DNA of 64,000 bases, from the sequence record LR597663; one strand, given 5' to 3'. Positions within the stretch are counted from its first letter, which is position 1; every line of letters begins with the position of its first letter. The position numbers and the translations under genes were made by a program. Below are positions 1,137 through 34,969 of the stretch, piece after piece. Under the pieces are notes generated by a model. The model searched no databases. It worked only from the letters and a program-made list of their open reading frames with translations, and was not told the DNA's origin. Source of the stretch: Escherichia phage VpaE1_ev78.

Positions 1137-2552
1137 ATGAGCGAATTATTTAAACATGCGCACCTTCATGCAGGTCGAACTGAAAATGGTGCTGTAAACC
1201 ATACTTCATCAATGTCTGCTCTTGTGGACTTTTATAAAGCTGCTGGTTCAAGCCGTAGCAATGTAGAAGTCTTACCAGACCTGTTCTACAAAGCTTTGCG
1301 TGAGGATGTTGATGTTGCAGTTCGTATTTTGCTTCATATGCGAGATGTACGAGAAGGTATGGGTGAGCGTAAAGCCTTCAGAACTGTTTTGCTTCAAGCG
1401 ATTGAAGACAAAGTTTTAGAGCCTGTACAGGTTCTTCGCATTATGGATAAGATTGCAGAACTTGGTCGTTTTGATGACTTCAAAATCTTCGTAGGTACTC
1501 GTTTCGAGACAGATGCCTTCAAACATTTAGAAGCAGCATTACTAGACCCTGCAACAGCAGGTTTGGCAGCCAAGTGGCTACCACGAGTCAAACCACGTCA
1601 TAAGCAGTTTGTAAAACGTTTCTGCAAGTTTGCCAACTTGAGTGAGAAAGAGTACCGCACACTGTTGTCTGCACTATCTGATACAGTTGAGCAAAAAATC
1701 TCTGCTAATGAGTTTGGTAAGATTGACTACAGTAAGATTCCTTCTCTTGCTGCTGCACGTTACCAAAAGCTGTTTAACCGTAAAGATGGAGAGCGTTACA
1801 AAGCTTACATCGAGTCCTTATCAAAGGGTGAGGCTAAGATTAATGCTGGTGCTGTTTACCCATACGATGTGATTAAATCTGTCAAGCATGGTAATGCAGA
1901 TGTTGCTAATGAGCAGTGGAAAGCACTACCAAACTGGATGGCAGAAGGTGAAAACATCTTATGTATGACTGATGTTTCAAGCTCAATGTCTTGGGTGAAT
2001 TTTGGCTCCATTACTGCTCTTGATATTGGTGTATCACTTGCCTTGTATGTAGCAGAACGCAATACAGGTTGCTTTAAGGATGAGTTGATGGTTTATTCAA
2101 CAAACCCTCACTTCATCGAACTGAGTGGTGATTTACGAAACCGTCATCGTCAGGTGATGCGACACGTTGAATATGGCTCAACCAACTTACAAGCAGCTTT
2201 TGACCGCATTCTTGAGATAGGTAAGAGAAACAACTTGACTCAGGAAGATATGCCAAGTAAGCTTATCATCTTCTCCGATATGGAGTTCAATCAGGTTGAT
2301 GGAGCTAACGGTCGTACAAACTTTGAAGCAATTCAGAGCAAGTACAAGAAAGCTGGATATGAGATGCCACAACTGGTATTCTGGTACTTAGCAAACCGTA
2401 ATGGTACTTGCGAAGTGTCTGTTAAGGATAACGGTGTAGCAATGGTATCTGGTTTCTCTCCAGCCACTTTAAAAGCTCTGCTTGGTGGTGAGAAGTTTGA
2501 CCCAATCAGCGTAATGCTCAAAGCAGTAATGATTGACCGCTATATCTGGTAA
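1137..2552 (+). CDS. vWA-domain protein with MIDAS motif and N-terminal helical domain (DUF2828-like / Ro60-like architecture)
   Basis: C-terminal half contains DxSxS (TDVSSSM), a conserved Thr (GSTNL) and Asp (FSDMEF) typical of vWA MIDAS; N-terminal 260 aa predicted helical; RBS GAGAAGAGAG upstream. Confidence 0.75.
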   Translation: MSELFKHAHLHAGRTENGAVNHTSSMSALVDFYKAAGSSRSNVEVLPDLFYKALREDVDVAVRILLHMRDVREGMGERKAFRTVLLQAIEDKVLEPVQVLRIMDKIAELGRFDDFKIFVGTRFETDAFKHLEAALLDPATAGLAAKWLPRVKPRHKQFVKRFCKFANLSEKEYRTLLSALSDTVEQKISANEFGKIDYSKIPSLAAARYQKLFNRKDGERYKAYIESLSKGEAKINAGAVYPYDVIKSVKHGNADVANEQWKALPNWMAEGENILCMTDVSSSMSWVNFGSITALDIGVSLALYVAERNTGCFKDELMVYSTNPHFIELSGDLRNRHRQVMRHVEYGSTNLQAAFDRILEIGKRNNLTQEDMPSKLIIFSDMEFNQVDGANGRTNFEAIQSKYKKAGYEMPQLVFWYLANRNGTCEVSVKDNGVAMVSGFSPATLKALLGGEKFDPISVMLKAVMIDRYIW

Positions 2553-2661: not shown

Positions 2662-2691
2662 TTGACAATCACTAAAAAATAATGTTAAAGT
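2662..2691 (+). promoter_or_regulatory. sigma70-like promoter upstream of tRNA array (TTGACA, 17-18 nt, TTAAAG/TAAAGT)
   Basis: Consensus -35, approximate -10, about 25 nt upstream of first tRNA. Confidence 0.5.
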
Positions 2692-2716: not shown

Positions 2717-2794
2717 TCTCTGTTTAGCTCAGCTTGGTAGAGCGTTCCGTTTGGGGCGGTAAGGCCGGAGGTTCAAGTCCTCCAACAGAGACCA
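2717..2794 (+). tRNA. tRNA-Pro (anticodon TGG)
   Basis: Hand-folded cloverleaf: 7-bp acceptor CTCTGTT/AACAGAG, D-loop AGCTTGGTAG, T-arm GGAGG-TTCAAGT-CCTCC, anticodon loop TTTGGGG, CCA encoded. Confidence 0.7.
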
Positions 2795-2801
2795 AATTAA
2801 T

Positions 2802-2879
2802 GTTCCAGTAGACAAAATGGTAAAGTCACCACTCTTTCAAAGTGGATATCTGAGGGTTCAAATCCCTTCTGGAACGCCA
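2802..2879 (+). tRNA. tRNA-Glu (anticodon TTC)
   Basis: Acceptor GTTCCAG/CTGGAAC, anticodon arm CCACT-CTTTCAA-AGTGG, T-loop TTCAAAT, CCA encoded. Confidence 0.7.
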
Positions 2880-2885
2880 GTTTTG

Positions 2886-2910
2886 ACAGAAGACCAATTG
2901 CAGCAAACTT
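2886..2910 (+). repeat. tRNA-spacer motif ACAGAAGACC-N5-CAGCAA, copy 1; followed about 60 nt later by GGTCTGG
   Basis: Motif recurs at about 3053, 3449 and 3535, partial copy near 6168. Confidence 0.6.
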
Positions 2911-2970
2911 AATCTTATTCATCTGAAGGTAAATCGGACAAAGAAGAGATTTGGTCTGGTCATTAAGAAT

Positions 2971-3047
2971 TGCGGGTATAGAGAAAGGGCGTCTCACATG
3001 TCTCATTAGCATGGTATCGGCAGGTTCGACTCCTGCACCCGCCTCCA
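2971..3047 (+). tRNA. tRNA with CAT anticodon (Met / initiator / Ile-lysidine type undetermined)
   Basis: T-arm GCAGG-TTCGACT-CCTGC, acceptor with 1:72 mismatch, anticodon stem built on palindromic CATG; position 37 appears to be T, which is atypical. Confidence 0.5.
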
Positions 3048-3052
3048 AATTT

Positions 3053-3077
3053 ACAGAAGACCGTTTACAGCAATATT
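3053..3077 (+). repeat. tRNA-spacer motif ACAGAAGACC-N5-CAGCAA, copy 2
   Basis: TTACAGAAGACCGTTTACAGCAA; GGTCTGG about 58 nt downstream. Confidence 0.6.
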
Positions 3078-3131
3078 TATTAAATTTTTAGCGGAAAAAA
3101 TTGAAAGATACGGTCTGGTAACACTAAACAT

Positions 3132-3208
3132 GGTTAGGAAGCACATAAGGTATGTGCGGTCGCCTGTTAAGCGAATGGCACAGGGTTCGAATCCCTGACT
3201 AACCGCCA
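3132..3208 (+). tRNA. tRNA-Asn (anticodon GTT)
   Basis: Acceptor GGTTAGG/ACTAACC, anticodon loop CTGTTAA, T-arm CAGGG-TTCGAAT-CCCTG, CCA encoded. Confidence 0.7.
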
Positions 3209-3217
3209 AATTTAAAT

Positions 3218-3305
3218 GTGTCGTTATCCCGTAGATGGTAGCGGTGGGGACTGTAAATCCCTTGTCATTGAGACTCGGTAGGTTCGACTCCTACACGGCA
3301 CACCA
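3218..3305 (+). tRNA. tRNA-Tyr (anticodon GTA), long variable arm
   Basis: 88 nt; acceptor GTGTCGT/ACGGCAC, anticodon arm GGGGA-CTGTAAA-TCCCT, T-loop TTCGACT. Confidence 0.7.
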
Positions 3306-3310
3306 ATAAA

Positions 3311-3388
3311 GGTTATGTAGTTTAATTTGGTTAAAATACTCCCCTGTCACGGGAGATGATGAGGGTTCAAATCCCTTCGTAACCGCCA
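3311..3388 (+). tRNA. tRNA-Asp (anticodon GTC)
   Basis: Acceptor GGTTATG/CGTAACC, anticodon arm CTCCC-CTGTCAC-GGGAG, T-loop TTCAAAT. Confidence 0.7.
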
Positions 3389-3448
3389 ATTTTGAGAGGG
3401 CTATTTAGCCCCTCCCTTAAAGAGTTCTTACGAGTATTCTTTAAAGGA

Positions 3449-3472
3449 GCAGAAGACCAAATACAGCAAGTT
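3449..3472 (+). repeat. tRNA-spacer motif, copy 3 (GCAGAAGACCAAATACAGCAA)
   Basis: Same motif family; GGTCTGG about 67 nt downstream. Confidence 0.55.
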
Positions 3473-3534
3473 ATTTAAAATTTCAAGCCAATTTAATTTT
3501 GAAAAATTTAAAACTTGGTCTGGCTCAACAAATT

Positions 3535-3560
3535 TACAGAAGACCGTTTACAGCAAAACT
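3535..3560 (+). repeat. tRNA-spacer motif, copy 4 (TTACAGAAGACCGTTTACAGCAA)
   Basis: Identical core to copy 2. Confidence 0.6.
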
Positions 3561-3591
3561 TAACAATCTATTTCTCCGGTAAAGAAAAGGC

Positions 3592-3626
3592 GAAGGTTCG
3601 ATTCCTTCACTCGGCAGATGTCGAGT
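3592..3626 (+). ncRNA. tRNA-like minihelix: canonical T-arm (GAAGG-TTCGATT-CCTTC) directly followed by a 7-bp acceptor-like hairpin (ACTCGGC-AGAT-GTCGAGT); no D or anticodon arm found
   Basis: T-loop consensus present but no complementary 5-prime acceptor strand within 120 nt upstream; complementary strand lies immediately downstream. Confidence 0.4.
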
Positions 3627-3668
3627 TGGTGTAATGGTAGTACTTAAGATGATAAACAACGGTCTGGT

Positions 3669-3688
3669 AATTATCTTTGTAGATAAGT
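3669..3688 (+). repeat. hairpin element TTATCT-TTGT-AGATAA preceded by GGTCTGG
   Basis: Second copy with inverted loop (TTATCT-ACAA-AGATAA) at about 3795-3810; the two flank roughly 105 nt. Confidence 0.55.
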
Positions 3689-3792
3689 TATTAAGCTTAC
3701 CTGTGAGTATGCGACCACAAAGGGTGAAAGGGTAAATTCTAGATTTAAACCCAAAAAGGCACATCGCTACAGACCTTAAGCAAGTCTGGGTA

Positions 3793-3812
3793 GCTTATCT
3801 ACAAAGATAATT
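3793..3812 (+). repeat. hairpin element TTATCT-ACAA-AGATAA, second copy, preceded by GTCTGGG
   Basis: Reverse complement of the copy at 3669-3688. Confidence 0.55.
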
Positions 3813-3816
3813 TAAT

Positions 3817-3892
3817 GGAAGTGTAGCAGAATGGTGATGCGGCAGACTTTTAATCTGACAGGCGATGGGTTCGAATCCCTCCACTTCTACCA
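3817..3892 (+). tRNA. tRNA-Lys (anticodon TTT)
   Basis: Acceptor GGAAGTG/CACTTCT, anticodon loop CTTTTAA, T-loop TTCGAAT; two outer T-stem mismatches. Confidence 0.6.
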
Positions 3893-3896
3893 ATAT

Positions 3897-3973
3897 GGTT
3901 CAGTCGCAGATAAGGTAATGCAAGGGTCTCATAAGCCCTATGAATGTGGGTTCGATTCCCATCTGAACCTCCA
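3897..3973 (+). tRNA. tRNA-Met (anticodon CAT)
   Basis: Acceptor GGTTCAG/CTGAACC, anticodon arm AGGGT-CTCATAA-GCCCT, T-loop TTCGATT, CCA encoded. Confidence 0.65.
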
Positions 3974-3974
3974 A

Positions 3975-4050
3975 GCTGGTATAGTTAAGAAGGTTATAAC
4001 ACTCCCCTGATAAGGGAACATCGGTGGTTCGATTCCACCTACCAGTACCA
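3975..4050 (+). tRNA. tRNA-Ile (anticodon GAT)
   Basis: Acceptor GCTGGTA/TACCAGT, anticodon loop CTGATAA, T-arm GGTGG-TTCGATT-CCACC. Confidence 0.65.
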
Positions 4051-4065
4051 ATTTCAATAAAGTTG

Positions 4066-4094
4066 TTGACATTGAGATGTGACTACTTTATAGT
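4066..4094 (+). promoter_or_regulatory. sigma70-like promoter (TTGACA, 17 nt, TATAGT)
   Basis: Near-consensus hexamers with 17-nt spacer inside the tRNA array. Confidence 0.6.
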
Positions 4095-4298
4095 AACCTT
4101 AGTTTTCGTTGCGTAGCGTCTATTTTGCAAATTTAAAATAAATGCAAACGACAATGTTTTTCTGGCAGTAGCTTGATAGGCTAAACACCAGTGAGGTCTT
4201 CCAATCCCTCATCAAAGAATTTGGCGTACTCGCCCACGGTATGATTAATAAGGTGGGCATCTTTAAGGGCTTTCTAAGAGAGTCTTTAAAGATAATTA

Positions 4299-4380
4299 CG
4301 GGGCGTATCTCAGCGGTCTTCTAAACCGCCGTTAACCGAGTAAGTGGAGTATGCGGGTTCGAGTCCTGCCGCCTCGACCA
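4299..4380 (+). tRNA. atypical tRNA-like gene (82 nt): acceptor and T-arm canonical, anticodon-like hairpin with loop CTTCTAA (TCT, Arg-like), no recognisable D-arm, 23-nt extra region
   Basis: Acceptor CGGGGCG/CGCCTCG, T-arm GCGGG-TTCGAGT-CCTGC, CCA encoded; the only strong internal hairpin is GCGGT-CTTCTAA-ACCGC right after positions 8-9. Confidence 0.45.
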
Positions 4381-4394
4381 ATTTTGGAGAAATC

Positions 4395-4742
4395 ATGAAA
4401 ACTTGTATTAGGTGCAAACTTAGCAAGGATGAAAATGATTTCTACATGAAAGATGGTAGGAGAACTCATTCATACTGTAAAAAGTGTGTTAATGAGCAAA
4501 CCATAGAAAGACAAAGAGCACTTAAACTCTCAGCTATTGAGTACAAAGGTGGGGTTTGTCACGATTGTGGTAAAAAGTATCATCCAGCAGTGTATGACTT
4601 CCATCATTTGAATCCTTCAGAGAAAGATTTTAACATTGGTCATAGGAAAAGCCTTAAGTTCTCTCAAGAACTAAAAGATGAACTTGACAAATGTGTTTTG
4701 CTATGTTCAAATTGCCATAGGGTAAGACATGCAAAGTATTAG
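4395..4742 (+). CDS. HNH homing endonuclease
   Basis: Motif DFHHLNPSEKDF...CVLLCSNCHRVRH; ORF-track start lies inside the upstream tRNA, so trimmed to ATG at 4395 (RBS GGAGA). Confidence 0.8.
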   Translation: MKTCIRCKLSKDENDFYMKDGRRTHSYCKKCVNEQTIERQRALKLSAIEYKGGVCHDCGKKYHPAVYDFHHLNPSEKDFNIGHRKSLKFSQELKDELDKCVLLCSNCHRVRHAKY

Positions 4743-4885
4743 TTAGCAGATTACTTAGACGACCTAAGCGGGTCTTCCTGTAGGGAGGTGGTCTGTATCT
4801 CATGTTTTCCAGAACATGTAAATAATCTGAGAAGAAGCTTGACAGTGTTGAGATAACAGGGTAAGCTTCGAATTATAGTTTTAAT

Positions 4886-4956
4886 AGGGGTGAGCTATGG
4901 CAGCAATAGAGTCTCCAAAATTCTTGATTAGAGTTCGAATCTCTACACCCCTGCCA
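4886..4956 (+). tRNA. tRNA-Trp (anticodon CCA), short with reduced D-arm
   Basis: Acceptor AGGGGTG/CACCCCT, anticodon arm AGAGT-CTCCAAA-ATTCT, T-arm TAGAG-TTCGAAT-CTCTA; about 71 nt. Confidence 0.55.
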
Positions 4957-4970
4957 GAACAGGTGCTTGT

Positions 4971-5375
4971 ATGAAACTTTGTAGAAAATGTTCTCAAGAA
5001 AAGCCTTTAAGCTGCTTTCATAAAAGAGGTAATGGCTATCAGTCTGCTTGCAAAGATTGTAAAGCTAAGTACTCAGCAAAGAGATACAAAGAAGACCCTA
5101 CTTATAAAGCAAAAAGAAAAGTTAGGGCAAAATATGACAAAAAGAGGAACAGAGAGTTCCTTAGTAGATATAAAAAGTTTTGCAAATGCAGAATATGTGG
5201 CGAATCTGAGCCAGTAGCTTTGGATTTTCATCACTTAGACCCTAAAGAGAAAGATTTTGCTCCAAGCAATCTTAAAACTTACTCTAGGGGCACTATTAAG
5301 CGTGAAGTCCGTAAGTGTGTTGTGCTTTGTTCAAACTGTCATAGGAAAGTTCATGAAGGACTGTTAAGTATTTAA
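4971..5375 (+). CDS. HNH homing endonuclease (paralogue of 4395..4742)
   Basis: Motif DFHHLDPKEKDF...CVVLCSNCHRKVH; RBS AGGTG. Confidence 0.8.
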   Translation: MKLCRKCSQEKPLSCFHKRGNGYQSACKDCKAKYSAKRYKEDPTYKAKRKVRAKYDKKRNREFLSRYKKFCKCRICGESEPVALDFHHLDPKEKDFAPSNLKTYSRGTIKREVRKCVVLCSNCHRKVHEGLLSI

Positions 5376-5388
5376 CAGTCTTATTAGG

Positions 5389-5476
5389 GGTAGGTAGCGG
5401 CTAATGGTAGCCAAACTGTCTTGAAAACAGTTGCCACTGTAGAGATACGGTGAGGGTTCGACTCCTTTACTTACCG
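5389..5476 (+). tRNA. tRNA-Ser (anticodon TGA), long variable arm
   Basis: Acceptor GGTAGGT/ACTTACC, anticodon arm ACTGT-CTTGAAA-ACAGT, T-loop TTCGACT; CCA not encoded. Confidence 0.65.
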
Positions 5477-5633
5477 CCTAATAAGATTTAAAGCCAAGCT
5501 TCATTCGGATGTTGCTTTGGTATCCCGCGTGTATTGTTGTACACACTGATAAAGCACCTAGTAGGTGTCACGGAGAAGAGATAATATCAAGCTCTCCAAA
5601 GGTTCTAGTCACCGGATTAAACAAGACTATGCA

Positions 5634-5654
5634 AAGACCTTTTTAGGTCTTTTT
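5634..5654 (+). terminator. possible intrinsic terminator or processing hairpin (AAGACC-TTTTTA-GGTCTT plus TTTT)
   Basis: Short hairpin followed by T-run inside the tRNA array. Confidence 0.3.
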
Positions 5655-5733
5655 AGAGGGCTTCTAAGGTTATTACAGCTTGTTGTGGAACCTTGTTGCT
5701 TAGGTTCTTAGAAGTTCTCTAAAAAGATTTAAT

Positions 5734-5811
5734 GGGAGATTGACGGTAATTGGTAAACCTATCTCGCTTAGAACGAGATGTTTGAGGGTTCGAATCCCTT
5801 GTCTCCTACCA
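5734..5811 (+). tRNA. tRNA with TAG anticodon (nominally Leu) but type-I short variable arm
   Basis: Acceptor GGGAGAT/GTCTCCT, anticodon arm TCTCG-CTTAGAA-CGAGA, T-arm GAGGG-TTCGAAT-CCCTT; variable region about 5 nt. Confidence 0.55.
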
Positions 5812-5818
5812 AATTAAT

Positions 5819-5894
5819 GCAGGTGTAGCAAAATGGTTATGCGGCTGACTCTTAATCAGTAAGACGATGGGTTCAATTCCCTCCACCTGTACCA
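5819..5894 (+). tRNA. tRNA-Lys (anticodon CTT)
   Basis: Acceptor GCAGGTG/CACCTGT, anticodon loop CTCTTAA, T-loop TTCAATT; similar to the 3817 tRNA. Confidence 0.6.
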
Positions 5895-5899
5895 AAAAT

Positions 5900-5975
5900 G
5901 GGGTCATAGTTTATATGGTTAAAATTCGAGTTTTGCAAACTTGGGAACTGAGTTCAATTCTCAGTGACTCCACCA
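5900..5975 (+). tRNA. tRNA-Ala (anticodon TGC)
   Basis: Acceptor GGGGTCA/TGACTCC, anticodon arm CGAGT-TTTGCAA-ACTTG, T-arm CTGAG-TTCAATT-CTCAG. Confidence 0.65.
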
Positions 5976-5981
5976 ATTAGT

Positions 5982-6056
5982 GCATCCATAGTTTAAACGG
6001 GAAAATTACAGTCTTCCAAACTGAGGTTGAGGGTTCGATTCCCTCTGGATGCTCCA
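5982..6056 (+). tRNA. tRNA-Gly (anticodon TCC)
   Basis: Acceptor GCATCCA/TGGATGC, anticodon loop CTTCCAA, T-arm GAGGG-TTCGATT-CCCTC. Confidence 0.65.
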
Positions 6057-6063
6057 AATTAAT

Positions 6064-6139
6064 GCTCCTATCGTATAATTGGCTATTACGGTTGCCTTGT
6101 AAGTAACTTATCAGGGTTCGAATCCTTGTGGGAGCACCA
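6064..6139 (+). tRNA. tRNA-Thr (anticodon TGT)
   Basis: Acceptor GCTCCTA/TGGGAGC, anticodon arm GTTGC-CTTGTAA-GTAAC, T-loop TTCGAAT. Confidence 0.65.
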
Positions 6140-6236
6140 ATTTAGAGGTCAAGTGAAAGACCGCTTTGAGTCAACTGAAGACCGTAACAAATTCCACGGA
6201 GTTGAGTTAGCGGCACAACTCCAGACCTCTTCTCAC

Positions 6237-6311
6237 ACTCGCTTAGTTTATATGGTAAAACACCACCCTTACAAGATGAAGAAAAAGGTTCAAGTCCTTT
6301 AGTGAGTACCA
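6237..6311 (+). tRNA. tRNA, probably Val (anticodon TAC); weak anticodon stem
   Basis: Acceptor ACTCGCT/AGTGAGT, T-arm AAAGG-TTCAAGT-CCTTT, anticodon loop CTTACAA with two stem mismatches. Confidence 0.45.
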
Positions 6312-6312
6312 T

Positions 6313-6390
6313 GTTCCAGTATCCCAATTGGCAGAGGATGCAAGCTCAAACCTTGTACTAGTGATGGTTCGAATCCATCTTGGAACACCA
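6313..6390 (+). tRNA. tRNA with CAA anticodon (nominally Leu) but type-I short variable arm
   Basis: Acceptor GTTCCAG/TTGGAAC, anticodon arm GCAAG-CTCAAAC-CTTGT, T-arm GATGG-TTCGAAT-CCATC. Confidence 0.5.
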
Positions 6391-6395
6391 ATTTT

Positions 6396-6471
6396 GCAGG
6401 ATTAGTTCAAATGGATAGAGCAACAGTCTACGAAGCTGTTAATAGGGGTTCAAATCCCTTATCCTGCGCCA
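6396..6471 (+). tRNA. tRNA-Arg (anticodon ACG)
   Basis: Acceptor GCAGGAT/ATCCTGC, anticodon arm ACAGT-CTACGAA-GCTGT, T-loop TTCAAAT. Confidence 0.65.
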
Positions 6472-6490
6472 ATTTAAAGAGGCTATTTAG

Positions 6491-7048
6491 ATGAGATATT
6501 TGAAGTATGCTTCATGGATTTTCTTAGCTTTGTTAGAACCATTTGCAGCAATCTTAGCAGTTATCTTAGCACCTTTTGTAGTTCCATTCTACAGTGAGAA
6601 GAAAGGACACTTACCTTTCGGGTTCAGATGGATGGAGACATATGACAACCCAATTGATGGTGATGAAGGTCACGTTAAAAGATGGGCTAATATTAGATGG
6701 ATTGGTAAACTAGGTGTCTACATGCAAAGAGTCGGATGGCTCTGGAGAAACAAAGCTTATAACTTCTCTTACCATGTGTTAGGAAGAGATGTAAAAGATG
6801 TTACTAAGTGGAAAGGTAATATCAACGTAAGTTCTAACCCTGAAGATAATCAGACAGGTTATCTCCTAATGTGGAACAGTAATGCTTGGGGATTATTCGC
6901 TTTTACCCCATCAATTAAAATCTTTGGTAAACAGTTTTACTGGAGAATTTATATTGGGTGGAAGCTAAAAAGTGTTGTCCCAGAAGAAAGAGCATTCTCA
7001 AGGGAAAGAGTTATGTTGGCATTCTTTATTCATCCACTAAGAAAGTAA
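6491..7048 (+). CDS. Trp-rich membrane protein of unknown function (185 aa) inside the tRNA array
   Basis: RBS AAAGAGG; hydrophobic N-terminal segment WIFLALLEPFAAILAVILAPFVVPF; many Trp residues. Confidence 0.65.
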   Translation: MRYLKYASWIFLALLEPFAAILAVILAPFVVPFYSEKKGHLPFGFRWMETYDNPIDGDEGHVKRWANIRWIGKLGVYMQRVGWLWRNKAYNFSYHVLGRDVKDVTKWKGNINVSSNPEDNQTGYLLMWNSNAWGLFAFTPSIKIFGKQFYWRIYIGWKLKSVVPEERAFSRERVMLAFFIHPLRK

Positions 7049-7056
7049 AGATTTAA

Positions 7057-7132
7057 AGGGGATTAGTTTACAAGGTTAAAACCTCGGTCTTTGAAATCGA
7101 AGAAGTTGGTTCAATTCCAACATCCCCCGCCA
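7057..7132 (+). tRNA. tRNA-Gln (anticodon TTG)
   Basis: Acceptor AGGGGAT/ATCCCCC with 1:72 mismatch, anticodon loop CTTTGAA, T-arm GTTGG-TTCAATT-CCAAC. Confidence 0.6.
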
Positions 7133-7134
7133 AT

Positions 7135-7213
7135 GCTCCATTACTCCAATTGGCAGAGAGGCCAGACTTAAAATCTGTGTTATGTATCGGTTCGAATCCG
7201 ATATGGAGTACCA
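7135..7213 (+). tRNA. tRNA with TAA anticodon (nominally Leu) but type-I variable arm (about 7 nt)
   Basis: Acceptor GCTCCAT/ATGGAGT, anticodon loop CTTAAAA, T-arm ATCGG-TTCGAAT-CCGAT. Confidence 0.5.
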
Positions 7214-7218
7214 AATTT

Positions 7219-7294
7219 AGCGGTATAGCATAACTGGCAATGCAGCAGCCTCTGAAGCTGTCCTATTAAGGTTCAAATCCTTATGCCGCTGCCA
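7219..7294 (+). tRNA. tRNA-Gln (anticodon CTG)
   Basis: Acceptor AGCGGTA/TGCCGCT, anticodon arm GCAGC-CTCTGAA-GCTGT, T-arm TAAGG-TTCAAAT-CCTTA. Confidence 0.6.
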
Positions 7295-7325
7295 CTTCTA
7301 AGGATTCTTACGAGAGTCCTTAAAT

Positions 7326-7401
7326 GTGGCCTTATCATAAATGGTAATGACCCATGCTGTGAACATGGTCTATACGGGTTCAAATCCCGTAGGTCACCCC
7401 A
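7326..7401 (+). tRNA. tRNA-His (anticodon GTG)
   Basis: Acceptor GTGGCCT/AGGTCAC, perfect anticodon arm CCATG-CTGTGAA-CATGG, T-arm ACGGG-TTCAAAT-CCCGT. Confidence 0.7.
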
Positions 7402-7406
7402 ATTTA

Positions 7407-7481
7407 TAGTCCAAGTAGCTTATATGGTTAAAGCGCGTGTCTGAAAAACATGAGAAGAGGGTTCAAATCCCACTGGACTAC
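7407..7481 (+). tRNA. tRNA-Phe (anticodon GAA)
   Basis: Acceptor TAGTCCA/TGGACTA, anticodon arm CGTGT-CTGAAAA-ACATG, T-loop TTCAAAT; CCA not fully encoded. Confidence 0.6.
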
Positions 7482-7499
7482 CAATTTCAAAGGTGCTTA

Positions 7500-8234
7500 A
7501 TGAAAGAGATGACAGAACAAGGTAAGGAGATTTTTAATCTCTTAAAAACCGGTAAAGGGTTCTCTAACCCACTTATTACTGGTGCAGCAGTTCTCGGTGG
7601 AACCGTAGCTGCTTCTACATCACTTGTAAGCTCTATTAGTTCTGTAACAGACCCTACAATGAAGGAGAAACTTGTTGCTGCTGGACTTACAACAGTCCTT
7701 CTAAACAGCTTTACAACAAGCCTTACAAGCACTACAGCAACTACTAAAACTCTGACAGACTACGGTCAAAAGTCTATTGATGAGTTTTCATCACGTATGC
7801 AGGTAGCAAAGGGGTATTCCAATGTTATGGGTGCAGCAGGAGAACAAGTTGGTTGTACACCATTCAGTGGTATCATGGGTGTTGCTACAGAGTATGGTCA
7901 AAAAGCTATTGACATGATGAACAGTACACTAGATAGTGTTAATGGTGTGTTAAGTGACTTGCAAGATGCTATTGATAAGGGTCTTGATACTGTTTCTGAT
8001 TTAGCTAATCAGGCTGTTAGTAAGATTAATGAAGGTATTTCAAAGATTACAGCTTATGCAGATGAAGTTGTGCAGATGATTGAAGAAGAAGCTGCCCTTA
8101 TTGCAGAGTACCTTAAAACGAATATCAATGGGTTCTTAGCAGGTATCTTACCAGACTGGTTTGATGATGCCTGTAAAACTGGTGTGATTGACACTATTGC
8201 AACACCAGAAATGAAGAGCGCATTACAGAAATAA
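7500..8234 (+). CDS. hypothetical Ser/Thr/Ala-rich protein (244 aa) inside the tRNA array
   Basis: ORF-track start overlaps tRNA-Phe; trimmed to in-frame ATG at 7500; low-complexity T/S/A/G-rich middle. Confidence 0.5.
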   Translation: MKEMTEQGKEIFNLLKTGKGFSNPLITGAAVLGGTVAASTSLVSSISSVTDPTMKEKLVAAGLTTVLLNSFTTSLTSTTATTKTLTDYGQKSIDEFSSRMQVAKGYSNVMGAAGEQVGCTPFSGIMGVATEYGQKAIDMMNSTLDSVNGVLSDLQDAIDKGLDTVSDLANQAVSKINEGISKITAYADEVVQMIEEEAALIAEYLKTNINGFLAGILPDWFDDACKTGVIDTIATPEMKSALQK

Positions 8235-8236
8235 AT

Positions 8237-8329
8237 GGAAGATTAACCCTAAAAGGTAAGGGAGCAGTTTGCTAAACTGCCAGTAGCTGAGAAATCGGTG
8301 TACCAGTTCAAGTCTGGTATCTTCCTCCA
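8237..8329 (+). tRNA. tRNA-Ser (anticodon GCT), long variable arm
   Basis: 93 nt; acceptor GGAAGAT/ATCTTCC, anticodon arm GCAGT-TTGCTAA-ACTGC, T-arm ACCAG-TTCAAGT-CTGGT; starts 3 nt after upstream stop. Confidence 0.7.
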
Positions 8330-8333
8330 ATTT

Positions 8334-8409
8334 GAATCCGTGACAGAAATGGCTATGTGCCTGTCTGCAAAACAGGTTTATAAGGGTTCGAGTCCCTTCG
8401 GATTCTCCA
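8334..8409 (+). tRNA. tRNA-Cys (anticodon GCA)
   Basis: Acceptor GAATCCG/CGGATTC, anticodon arm CCTGT-CTGCAAA-ACAGG, T-arm AAGGG-TTCGAGT-CCCTT. Confidence 0.7.
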
Positions 8410-8446: not shown

Positions 8447-8516
8447 GCCCTGCTATAAGTATTCTTCCTTTCGCTACCGAAGAGTATTTTTAGACAGGGC
8501 TTTTTTACAGAGTTAT
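8447..8516 (+). terminator. intrinsic terminator closing the tRNA array (long imperfect hairpin GCCCTG...CAGGGC plus TTTTTT)
   Basis: Stem arms with internal sub-stem, followed by six T. Confidence 0.55.
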
Positions 8517-8571: not shown

Positions 8572-8595
8572 GACGGTCTCTGTGCCGTCTTTTTT
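8572..8595 (+). terminator. intrinsic terminator (GACGG-TCTCTGTG-CCGTC plus TTTTTT)
   Basis: GC-rich 5-bp stem and T-run immediately upstream of structural module. Confidence 0.6.
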
Positions 8596-34609: not shown

Positions 34610-34969
34610 TTATGGGAACAAACATTTAATGTCATCGTTTTTGAAAACGAAGCTTGTGTAGTTGTGACCGTCAACATCCAGCCAAACAGCTTGAACATCT
34701 ACACCATCAAGATTGTGGTAAAGCTCTTTGATGAAGTGGTCTTTCACAATCTGGCTGCTAGTTGTCTCCAGCTTAATGTTTGAGATTGCTGAACCTACAG
34801 CCATATAACCCATGACACGTTTCTTCTCAGTGTGCTTAATCTTACCATCTTTGTAAGCCATAATGAGATTGGAAAGAATCTTCACACCATAATACTTTTC
34901 AAGGTGAGTAGGTGCACCATAAAAGCCTAATGCAAAGTTTTCAGAGTGGATAATGTTTTCACGTTTCAT
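34610..34969 (-). CDS. hypothetical protein (119 aa)
   Basis: ORF in minus-strand cluster. Confidence 0.5.
   Translation of the reverse strand: MKRENIIHSENFALGFYGAPTHLEKYYGVKILSNLIMAYKDGKIKHTEKKRVMGYMAVGSAISNIKLETTSSQIVKDHFIKELYHNLDGVDVQAVWLDVDGHNYTSFVFKNDDIKCLFP

Follow-up and report, generated by a model that had tools for sequence, protein, structure and literature searches.

The tRNA array at 2717–8409 of a 64,000-nucleotide stretch of Escherichia phage VpaE1_ev78 DNA (sequence record LR597663; this whole stretch is the window analysed, and positions refer to it) raises the question of what the spacers between its transfer RNA (tRNA) genes encode and what connects them to the Ro60-like protein gene that lies just upstream. 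The tRNA array alone is textbook Felix O1 biology, and the novelty sits in the spacers, where four structured units recur that resemble bacterial Y RNAs. The region is most probably a tRNA and small-RNA operon of a Felix O1-like phage whose Y-like RNAs partner the Ro60-like protein, a chain that we infer as a whole, from transcription and processing through RNA–protein binding to biological role. An earlier note on this DNA, which described a tRNA array interrupted by protein genes, was incomplete rather than wrong, having overlooked the structured RNAs, an element with a UCU anticodon and the link to the Ro60-like gene.

Four Y-like RNA units beside a Ro60-fold gene

Reading of the spacers reveals four copies of ACAGAAGACCnnUUnCAGCAA (repeat family D8), each followed after 40–110 nt by nnGGUCUGG. 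The four units that contain these blocks share a common predicted fold, in which a 4-bp outer stem and a 5' AGA bulge lead into a 7–8 bp helix that encloses a variable interior. Specifically, unit 1 (2884–2962), a short form on the plus strand like units 2 and 3, combines the outer stem UGAC/GUCA and the AGA bulge with the helix AGACCAA/UUGGUCU and a UUG-CAGCAA segment. Unit 2 (3051–3121) presents UUAC/GUAA, the AGA bulge, AGACCGU/ACGGUCU and UUA-CAGCAA, and unit 3 (3447–3526; fold z −2.7) presents GAGC/GCUC, the AGA bulge, AGACCAA/UUGGUCU and AUA-CAGCAA. Unit 4 (3534–3670, plus strand) is a long, YrlA-type form in which the outer stem UUAC/GUAA, the helix and CAGCAA surround a permuted tRNA-like body. 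The units are interleaved with tRNAs and lie 4–10 nt from the flanking tRNA genes, with the exception of unit 3, which stands 58 nt 3' of tRNA-Asp; units 3 and 4 are separated by 7 nt. All four start 330–980 nt downstream of the Ro60-like gene and on its strand. Felixounavirus, Suspvirus and Mooglevirus alike have them at these four positions, with an invariant 5' block and freely diverging interiors.

The short units of the window are recovered by R1, a covariance model whose training set was limited to 31 short elements from distant phages. Run over both strands of the 64 kb, R1 places units 2, 1 and 3 as its top three matches (40.4 bits, E 2.9e-7; 28.1 bits, E 3.2e-4; and 23.9 bits, E 3.5e-3, respectively), and it also finds the orthologous units in Bas63, Felix O1, wV8, SUSP2 and Sf14, including the Sf14 unit 2 that an exact-motif scan misses. 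A fourth match on the minus strand at 34747–34808 (21.7 bits, E 0.013), with CAGCAA and a 7-bp helix, is probably a chance hit; it sits within the minus-strand open reading frame (ORF) 34610–34969 in a tightly packed gene block. Rfam, searched over the array gaps at E<=10, returns no Y-RNA match for units 1–4. In several deposited records these RNA loci are overlaid by spurious minus-strand 'hypothetical proteins'. Small products of this kind, bas63_0137/0138 of Bas63 (3249–3523 of that record) and gp048 of wV8 (2508–2765 of that record), run across units 3 and 4 and the large hairpin that follows; their frames are not conserved, and they are probably annotation artefacts.

The interior of unit 4 distinguishes it from units 1–3, which, like YrlB, lack a tRNA-like domain. 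A V/anticodon-like hairpin at 3573–3589 (UUUCU-CCGGUAA-AGAAA, followed by AGGCG) precedes a T arm at 3592–3608 (GAAGG-UUCGAUU-CCUUC). Directly after the T arm stands an acceptor-like closed hairpin of 7 bp at 3609–3626 (ACUCGGC-AGAU-GUCGAGU), and a U then introduces a D arm with a GG dinucleotide at about 3628–3644. This V-T-AS-D order is that of the YrlA tRNA-like domain as described by Chen et al. 2014 (PMC4201824). Between genera the acceptor-like hairpin shows the compensatory change ACUCG/CGAGU to ACACG/CGUGU (alignment A2), and the Rfam tRNA model gives a partial match of 22 bits over the V and T arms.

Such an orphan T arm with an immediate hairpin is found at no fewer than 12 distant loci; its strand is invariably that of the DUF2828 gene, the hairpin sequences are unrelated to one another, and the same scan yields no convincing matches on the opposite strands of the fetched loci. 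Examples include Klebsiella phage FBKp34, where the module lies between the gene and the first tRNA, and mycobacteriophage Kingsolomon, where it lies just 3' of the gene. A D arm follows in 13 of 13 elements, although it was never a search criterion, and a score as high as the observed one arises in just 1 of 2000 shuffles; the 4-bp stem of this arm is fully paired in 10 of the 13, formed from at least 6 different stem sequences. A MAFFT alignment of 22 long-form elements (A4) was dropped for covariation and model building, being unreliable in the variable acceptor-like hairpin and mixing sub-architectures: non-permuted tRNA-like bodies and T-D arrangements without the acceptor-like hairpin. 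The family members at L053 5734–5833, L054 5758–5853, L020 1532–1634 and L041 5789–5897 (L-numbers are our locus handles) are architecturally diverse; some members hold a non-permuted tRNA-like body with D, anticodon-like and T arms inside the CAGCAA helix, and others pass from the T arm directly to the D arm with no acceptor-like hairpin between them.

The gene upstream of the array (1137–2552, plus strand) encodes a protein with DUF2828 and DUF7788/vWA domains (Pfam DUF7788 4.8e-44, DUF2828 6.3e-30) that belongs to phrog_850, 'RNA-binding protein', the name that RefSeq relatives also give to its orthologue. An AlphaFold2 model computed from an alignment of 36 diverse homologues reaches a predicted local distance difference test score (pLDDT) of 88.6. 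The top 12 Foldseek matches of this model in the PDB are all Ro60-type proteins matched over the full length (E 2e-8 to 2e-6; template modelling (TM) score 0.45–0.62), among them Xenopus Ro, Deinococcus Rsr and the Ro60 of Thermus phage phiLo (9kop/9l5y). Moreover, the residues D279, S281 and S283 of a DxSxS MIDAS motif are invariant in the 36 homologues. The product is thus predicted to adopt the Ro60 fold, in which HEAT-like repeats form a ring and a vWA domain with MIDAS comes after them. It is 97% identical to bas63_0130, the gp130 protein of Bas63, which has been reported as Ro60-like and as a counter-defence factor against Ppl (PhageMaP study); deletion of g130 gives small plaques on a host that carries Ppl. 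At least 709 phage records contain a homologue. They span enterobacterial phages, phages of Vibrio, Aeromonas, Campylobacter, Listeria, Staphylococcus and Bacillus, and mycobacteriophages, in which the annotation reads 'Ro-like RNA binding protein'; the distant homologues likewise carry DUF2828/DUF7788. At 27 of 75 distant metagenomic loci tRNAs lie within 6 kb of the gene, and all 213 of these tRNAs are on its strand. Directly before the Ro60-like gene, 684–1055 encodes a 123-aa DUF5681 protein (phrog_4114), and a DUF5681 gene holds the same place in Felix O1, wV8, SUSP2, Sf14 and Bas63.

At distant DUF2828 loci the elements share an outer module that reads [A/U]G[G/A]-helix, nUUn and C(A/C)GCAA on the 5' side and helix-[C/U]C[U/A], then G, on the 3' side. 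The descriptor for this module itself requires pairing, and enrichment was tested instead of pairing; independent evidence is limited to the asymmetry of strand and position, the model trained on other phages and a small position-selected set. Across 77 distant loci (888 kb) the strict descriptor gives 88 matches in the orientation of the gene against 2 in the opposite one, a 44-fold bias that includes phages with no tRNAs nearby; block shuffles give about 5 matches on both strands together, or about 2.6 per strand. These matches are spread over 58 of the 77 loci and use 51 distinct helix 7-mers, and 50 of the 88 lie within 300 nt of the gene. Selection by position (at most 140 nt downstream) and hexamer, with no pairing criterion, retrieves elements at 31 of the 77 loci, some of them missed by the strict descriptor. 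In a homogeneous subgroup of ten such position-selected sequences the helix is 100% paired, with three of its seven pairs changed on both sides, and the covariation score of 0.248 (0.089 in shuffles) is reached by none of 500 shuffles; the slid controls all lack covariation. At the level of sequence, the helix–CAGCAA signature is a family trait of DUF2828 loci.

Listeria phages present a similar arrangement. In phage AG20, three tandem CAGCAA-helix elements (3622–3884) occupy a 395-nt gap directly upstream of the DUF2828 gene, and the genes downstream of it (5581–8020) encode an HD-type phosphohydrolase and an RtcB-type 'tRNA splicing ligase'. A study of the related Listeria phage CKA15 describes three unannotated transcripts of extreme abundance, which lie no more than 2 kb upstream of an Rsr-like gene and run in its direction, and speculates that they are Y RNAs (PMC12282133). 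The AG20 elements lie in a matching gap, for which these transcripts provide indirect evidence of expression.

Collectively, the Y-like elements can be accepted with little doubt as genuine, conserved RNA structures that are linked with this protein family. That the Ro60-like protein binds them as trans-acting RNAs, as the analogy with Ro60 and its Y RNAs suggests, is likely, with a somewhat wider margin for error.

The tRNA array, its codons and the UCU element

ARAGORN identifies 26 tRNA genes in the window, all on the plus strand between 2718 and 8409, and none in the other 58 kb, a clustering far beyond chance. Hand folding in the earlier note had proposed about 26 plus-strand cloverleaf tRNAs, and the program returns exactly that number with an identical anticodon set; automated finders thus recover the array, ARAGORN in full and the Rfam covariance models in 24 of 26 cases. 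Of these, 22 match the Rfam tRNA model at 43.8–65.2 bits (gathering score 29), whereas Ser-UGA and Tyr, which have long variable arms, are matched best through the tRNA-Sec model. The two that Rfam misses are an atypical Met-CAU and a Trp with a short D arm, the latter at E<=0.1. Sub-threshold Rfam matches to tmRNA/tmRNA_permuted at 3992–4297 (16–29 bits, gathering 47) and to Dicty_Class_I, MIR473, Plastid-ycf2 and IS605-orfB-II were judged spurious or by-products of tRNA-like sequence.

The array opens with tRNA-Pro(UGG) at 2718–2794 and tRNA-Glu(UUC) at 2802–2879 (Rfam 57.7 and 60.4 bits), continues with the atypical tRNA-Met(CAU) at 2971–3047 between Y-like units 1 and 2, and then with tRNA-Asn(GUU) at 3132–3208, tRNA-Tyr(GUA) at 3218–3305 and tRNA-Asp(GUC) at 3311–3388. 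Beyond units 3 and 4 follow tRNA-Lys(UUU) at 3817–3892, a second tRNA-Met(CAU) at 3897–3973 and tRNA-Ile(GAU) at 3975–4050, and farther on the 71-nt tRNA-Trp(CCA) at 4886–4956, whose D arm is short, and tRNA-Ser(UGA) at 5389–5478. The remaining genes form compact groups: tRNA-Leu(UAG), Lys(CUU), Ala(UGC), Gly(UCC) and Thr(UGU) at 5734–6139; Val(UAC), Leu(CAA) and Arg(ACG) at 6237–6471; Gln(UUG), Leu(UAA), Gln(CUG), His(GUG) and Phe(GAA) at 7057–7483; and Ser(GCU) at 8237–8329 with Cys(GCA) at 8334–8409. All 20 amino acids are represented. Packing is as tight as the earlier note had described, with 9 spacers of at most 5 nt and 15 of at most 9 nt. The 3' CCA is encoded in 25 of the 26 genes; tRNA-Ser(UGA) is the sole exception, reads CCU and would need CCA repair or addition by a host enzyme.

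The two CAU tRNAs carry mixed marks for an initiator, an elongator or a lysidine-type Ile2. The copy at 2971–3047 has a U1-C72 mismatch, U37 and an anticodon stem lacking the G-C run; in the copy at 3897–3973 the anticodon stem contains three G-C pairs, but positions 1 and 72 are paired. The Felix O1 orthologue of the former has a Cove score of only 28.9 (PMC3185647). This tRNA is conserved in all Ounavirinae examined; it may serve in decoding or may instead be a functional member of the Y-like RNA group. Two labels in deposited records also differ from the present assignments: tRNA-Trp 4886–4956 is flagged pseudo/OTHER in the wV8 RefSeq record, and the Bas63 record labels the 93-nt tRNA-Ser(GCU) orthologue 'tRNA-Arg, codon AGA'.

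The region matches 352 phage records, 192 of them over at least 80% of its length and mostly at 95–99% identity; they comprise Felix O1, wV8 and a large number of further Felixounavirus isolates from Escherichia and Salmonella. Identity to Felix O1 and wV8 is 95–98% across 91–94% of the region. Their annotated clusters consist of orthologous genes in equal gene and anticodon order with equal flanking genes, a DUF2828 gene upstream and terminase downstream, and differ in the number and position of HNH cassettes. By these matches the genome is that of a Felixounavirus, and the tRNA array itself is already known as the Felix O1/wV8 type. Whichard et al. 2010 described the Felix O1 cluster with 22 tRNAs by tRNAscan-SE and six HNH genes, interspersed as here, and gave the same codon-usage rationale (PMC3185647). 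In published accounts of Felix O1 and wV8 the cluster consists of tRNAs and ORFs alone; the Y-like RNAs, the hairpin at 3670–3811 and the UCU element do not appear there.

Codon counts over 61 phage ORFs and an E. coli sample bear on that rationale. The GC content of third codon positions (GC3) is 0.32 in the phage and 0.51–0.56 in E. coli. For every four-codon box the phage supplies the U34 isoacceptor (seven four-box tRNAs), and the A-ending cognate codons of these tRNAs are 1.6–3.6-fold enriched in the phage relative to E. coli. The earlier proposal of a near-complete decoding set favouring A/T-ending codons agrees with this enrichment and with the coverage of 20 amino acids. The U34 tRNAs would thus supplement the host pool for A-ending codons over-used by the AT-rich phage, and phage tRNAs may also replace tRNAs lost to host anticodon nucleases.

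One codon stands apart. AGA accounts for 41% of phage Arg codons and 4% of those in the E. coli sample, a gap wider than for any other codon, and the window's set includes no canonical decoder for it; for Felix O1, too, a tRNA for the heavily used Arg[AGA] was expected yet missing (Whichard et al. 2010; PMC3185647). The Rfam tRNA model adds one match that is absent from the ARAGORN list (4299–4377, 31.7 bits, above the gathering score of 29), and this match holds the sole UCU anticodon of the window. It corresponds to a D-arm-less tRNA-like gene with a UCU (Arg/AGA) anticodon at 4299–4381 on the plus strand. In the predicted fold, a perfect 7-bp acceptor stem is followed by only 7 nt, then by the anticodon arm GCGGU-CUUCUAA-ACCGC, a 23-nt variable region, a T arm and ACCA with AUUU behind it, as in genuine tRNAs. 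ARAGORN rejects the element in standard, metazoan-mitochondrial and relaxed-score modes; at -ps60 it makes only implausible overlapping calls, and these were rejected. A canonical tRNA-Arg(UCU) with the same position and anticodon loop is present in Sf14, SUSP2, Bas63 and loci L003 and L004. The D-arm-less allele occurs in 120 phage records (116 at >=95% identity) and the canonical allele in 145, so that about 120 deposited genomes carry a conserved, unannotated UCU-anticodon tRNA-like gene.

The element may be a functional tRNA of non-canonical form, a tRNA mimic of another kind or a pseudogene in slow decay. The chances are roughly even that it is a functionless tRNA-Arg(UCU) pseudogene damaged by insertion of an HNH cassette, as would be suggested by the missing D arm, by rejection in all ARAGORN modes tried and by the HNH gene that begins 14 nt downstream both here and in Felix O1. 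A20, the major identity element for arginyl-tRNA synthetase (ArgRS), falls in the missing D loop, which also counts for decay. Conservation points the other way: the element is at least 95% conserved in 116 of the 120 records, wV8 has it without the HNH gene, and it keeps the acceptor stem, the anticodon arm, the T arm and the ACCA-AUUU context. Furthermore, in two genomes that carry the variant, the anticodon stem has undergone a compensatory change from G-C to U-A (GCGGU/ACCGC to GCUGU/ACAGC), the Rfam gathering score is passed, and the heavy phage use of AGA described above would give a decoder work to do.

The tRNA set as a whole might serve chiefly as counter-defence against anticodon nucleases instead of codon compensation, with the Ro-like RNA–protein particle belonging to the same programme of tRNA protection or repair. 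Its members would then stand in for host tRNAs that such enzymes cleave, or escape cleavage by a different anticodon loop. Phage tRNAs can rescue infection from tRNA-cleaving defences, as work on T5 and other phages has established. Several observations weigh against codon compensation as the main purpose of the set: in the G34 two-codon boxes, which comprise half of the tRNAs, codon usage equals that of the host; 11 of 23 cognate codons show no difference from the host; and the set spans 20 amino acids, not just the discordant codons. Additionally, the tRNAs of Bas63 are mostly non-essential in laboratory strains, where the PhageMaP authors speak of a 'conditionally essential' toolbox, so that the benefit of the tRNA set would be conditional. 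The neighbouring Ro-like protein counters defence, and in the Listeria phage the corresponding gene is followed by that of an RtcB-type tRNA ligase. Against a chiefly defensive purpose stands the match between the seven U34 four-box tRNAs and the over-used A-ending codons, the argument made for Felix O1 (PMC3185647). A chiefly defensive purpose is a tenable minority view, and the codon and counter-defence roles are compatible with each other.

Known Ro60–Y RNA systems and other accounts of the spacers

Operon, units and protein together resemble the rsr-yrlBA-rtcBA locus of Salmonella (PMC4201824), in which a ring protein of HEAT repeats and vWA likewise lies beside co-directional small RNAs; the AG20 gene order, with its RtcB ligase downstream, recalls the same locus. 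As in YrlA and YrlB, the ends of the units are paired in a stem that bears a conserved motif, and a long tRNA-like form is accompanied by shorter paralogues. The differences are equally specific: the protein is DUF2828/DUF7788 and not TROVE, the module is helix-nUUn-C(A/C)GCAA ... helix-G and not GNCGAAN0-1G, and the units are embedded in a tRNA operon. The Rfam YrlA model RF02553 matches the long forms of L085, L012 and L086 at 37.9–39.6 bits (E 3e-5 to 9e-5) over the full model length, these being the long forms of the Klebsiella phage, L012 and the mycobacteriophage. The Rfam alignment pairs their T, acceptor-like and D arms with those of the model and leaves CAGCAA just 5' of the matched core.

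A number of results count against equating these elements with a Ro60–Y RNA system. The RF02553 scores are far under the gathering threshold of 69 bits, and unit 4 itself gives no RF02553 match even when searched alone at E<=10. The canonical Ro60-binding motifs, GNCGAAN0-1G of bacteria and GGUCCGA of animals, are absent from units 1–4 and their relatives. On the protein side, there is no TROVE (PF05731) match, Pfam at E<=10 giving only DUF7788, DUF2828 and VWA_2, and phmmer against PDB sequences finds no relative of the product and no Ro60; the resemblance is by fold only, at a TM score of about 0.5–0.6. Pairing among the descriptor matches is circular as evidence, and each step from a DNA motif to a stable, protein-bound RNA is one that we infer from sequence. 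The units are accordingly YrlA/YrlB-like in architecture and context and depart from that family in motif and in Rfam score, and their partner is not a TROVE protein by sequence.

Two phage systems offer further parallels. Thermus phage phiLo likewise encodes a Ro60-fold protein with two adjacent Y-like RNAs, Yrl1 and Yrl2; its RNA binding has been shown experimentally, and counter-defence by hijacking of PNPase has been proposed (PMC12135203). The phiLo RNAs carry a CGAA motif, and their description mentions neither a tRNA-like form nor a surrounding tRNA array; structural alignment with phiLo Ro60 gives an identity of only about 15%. The Listeria CKA15/P100-like phages (PMC12282133) have the same DUF2828-type protein (29% identity), there downstream of a tRNA array; they differ in infecting another host phylum, in belonging to Herelleviridae and in carrying the elements, all short forms, upstream of the gene.

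On the preferred reading of a combined tRNA and Y-like RNA operon, transcription would run from tandem promoters at about 2.6 kb, just 3' of the Ro60-like gene, to tandem terminators at about 8.5 kb. Because CCA is encoded and the genes are packed 1–9 nt apart, the tRNAs are presumably freed from polycistronic precursors by host tRNA-processing enzymes, whose cuts would also free the interleaved Y-like RNAs. The Ro60-like ring would bind these RNAs through the helix/CAGCAA module, yielding a ribonucleoprotein (RNP) analogous to the Ro60–Y RNA particles that tether Ro60 to RNA-processing enzymes. Given the analogy with Ro60–Y RNA–PNPase particles and the Ppl phenotype, a tentative proposal for its role, and the most likely one, would be that the tRNA mimic tethers the ring to a tRNA-directed host enzyme or defence factor.

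The CAGCAA hairpins might instead act in cis, as RNase III/E processing or stability signals of the polycistronic precursor or as autoregulatory sites at which the Ro-like protein binds untranslated regions of its own mRNA. Many distant loci indeed hold a single short element 30–100 nt from a stop or start, a position expected of an untranslated region; the units here lie 4–10 nt from flanking tRNAs (unit 3, 58 nt after tRNA-Asp), where processing must occur, and other long hairpins stand directly before tRNA sub-clusters. However, tandem copies (four here, three in the Listeria phage, two to five elsewhere) mirror YrlA/YrlB, and both the invariant single-stranded CAGCAA and the elaborate tRNA-like inserts would be superfluous in a cleavage signal. 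The abundant, discrete CKA15 transcripts upstream of the Rsr-like gene, and the matching AG20 gap with its three elements (PMC12282133), likewise argue for RNAs that act in trans, and a purely cis-acting function is unlikely. Very unlikely is a plain tRNA array in which the remaining stretches are spacers, leftovers and protein genes and the repeated hairpins are functionless: in its favour, the 26 tRNAs and the ORFs do exist, the gaps are blank in public annotations or contain small spurious ORFs only, and Rfam assigns no family to units 1–4, but the 5' block and the paired helices persist in three genera despite diverging interiors, strand bias at DUF2828 genes of unrelated phages is 44-fold, and units 1–3 are the top R1 matches.

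The preferred reading, with Y-like RNAs as partners of the Ro60-like protein, also bears on earlier expectations. Both the PhageMaP work on Bas63 and the CKA15 multi-omics study suspected Y-RNA partners of phage Ro60-like proteins encoded beside tRNA genes, and neither named any; the searchable literature contains these two speculations that such RNAs should exist and no description of the RNAs themselves. The present analysis supplies coordinate-level candidates, a conserved signature and a covariance model, which together make both published speculations testable, and signature and model recover such RNAs beside the DUF2828 family in most phages examined. Questions that can now be put to the test are the ligand of the DUF2828 ring, the need of anti-Ppl activity for the RNAs and the purpose of the tRNA mimic. 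More speculatively, and with the odds leaning against the full combination, DUF2828/DUF7788 proteins and helix–CAGCAA RNAs might form a widespread, undescribed phage RNP, a sister of Ro60–Y RNA with its own recognition code, and the UCU element might be a working D-arm-less tRNA that decodes AGA. If so, Felix O1-like phages would make the RNAs of their RNP from the tRNA operon itself. The permuted-tRNA module would engage tRNA-directed host factors, such as defence nucleases and repair or processing enzymes, which would explain Ppl neutralisation, and with the UCU element a D-arm-less tRNA would for the first time be at work in bacterial translation.

Protein genes, promoters and hairpins of the operon

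The protein genes that interrupt the array are those the earlier note had listed, namely two HNH endonucleases, a membrane protein and a 244-aa ORF, and PHROG and Pfam searches support their presence. A free-standing, homing-type HNH endonuclease is encoded at 4395–4742 (phrog_2255, E 1.3e-39) and its paralogue at 4971–5375 (phrog_2255, E 3.3e-45; repeats D15 and D19). Pfam HNH matches of both ORFs are weak, and His and Cys motif residues are visible in the translations. The gene at 6491–7048 encodes a DUF7338 protein with a hydrophobic N-terminus (Pfam 1.3e-61; phrog_2143), and that at 7500–8234 a DUF7217 protein of 244 aa (Pfam 3e-87; phrog_2114). All four are on the plus strand, and NCBIfam gives no match for any of five ORFs searched.

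The HNH genes vary among close relatives. Felix O1 has the gene at 4395–4742 and wV8 lacks it at that site; conversely, the gene at 4971–5375 and tRNA-Trp are both in wV8 and both missing from Felix O1, which has two more HNH genes at the Met/Ile and Gly/Thr sites, empty in the window. tRNA-Trp 4886–4956 and the HNH gene 4971–5375 behave as a single cassette, and several other Felixounaviruses (L003–L006) that lack this cassette are left without any tRNA-Trp. The pattern of presence and absence fits what is expected of free-standing homing endonucleases, to judge from the gene sequences, and these HNH genes would reshuffle the tRNA cluster between close relatives.

In other phages, too, co-transcribed and tightly packed tRNAs are freed by host enzymes and stand together with extra small stable RNAs and free-standing endonuclease genes, as in T4 and T5. 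The T4 region comprises 8 tRNAs, the stable 'species 1 and 2' RNAs and the homing endonuclease SegB, a GIY-YIG enzyme where those of the window are HNH, and the T5 region contains HNH endonucleases. T4 is not known to encode a Ro60-like protein next to its tRNAs, and no CAGCAA-helix signature is known from the extra RNAs of T4.

Putative promoters were located as consensus matches only. Two tandem sigma70-like sites at 2571–2599 and 2662–2691 (plus strand, consensus scan, 10/12 each) lie ahead of tRNA-Pro, and each is preceded by an AAAAAG(N)TTGACA repeat (repeat family D20). The best match in the region is internal: TTGACA-17-TATAGT at 4066–4094 on the plus strand, with 11/12 of the consensus. 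At the far end, the closure of the array by tandem terminators that the earlier note had read is borne out by two plus-strand hairpins with U6 tracts, spanning 8447–8506 and 8572–8595. The first hairpin covers 8447–8500 (fold z −4.9), and the second, which is also found by a terminator scan, covers 8572–8589 with its tract running to 8595 (fold z −4.0).

A large conserved hairpin at 3670–3811 on the plus strand, with a closing stem of about 23 bp and a branched interior (minimum free energy −47 kcal/mol, z −5.7), stops 5 nt short of tRNA-Lys. Compensatory changes distinguish its Felixounavirus form from that of Suspvirus/Mooglevirus, and it probably serves as a processing element or is a further non-coding RNA. 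It is one of a series of long, near-perfect hairpins, together with those at 4259–4294, 5643–5732, 6144–6230, 7297–7325 and 3414–3446, which terminate 1–6 nt ahead of the first tRNA in each sub-cluster and may be RNase III/E processing sites or further small RNAs. In three of these long hairpins the shared 3' arm closes with AAAGAU(A/U)AUU(U)AAU, and a UUCUUACGAG loop is common to two.

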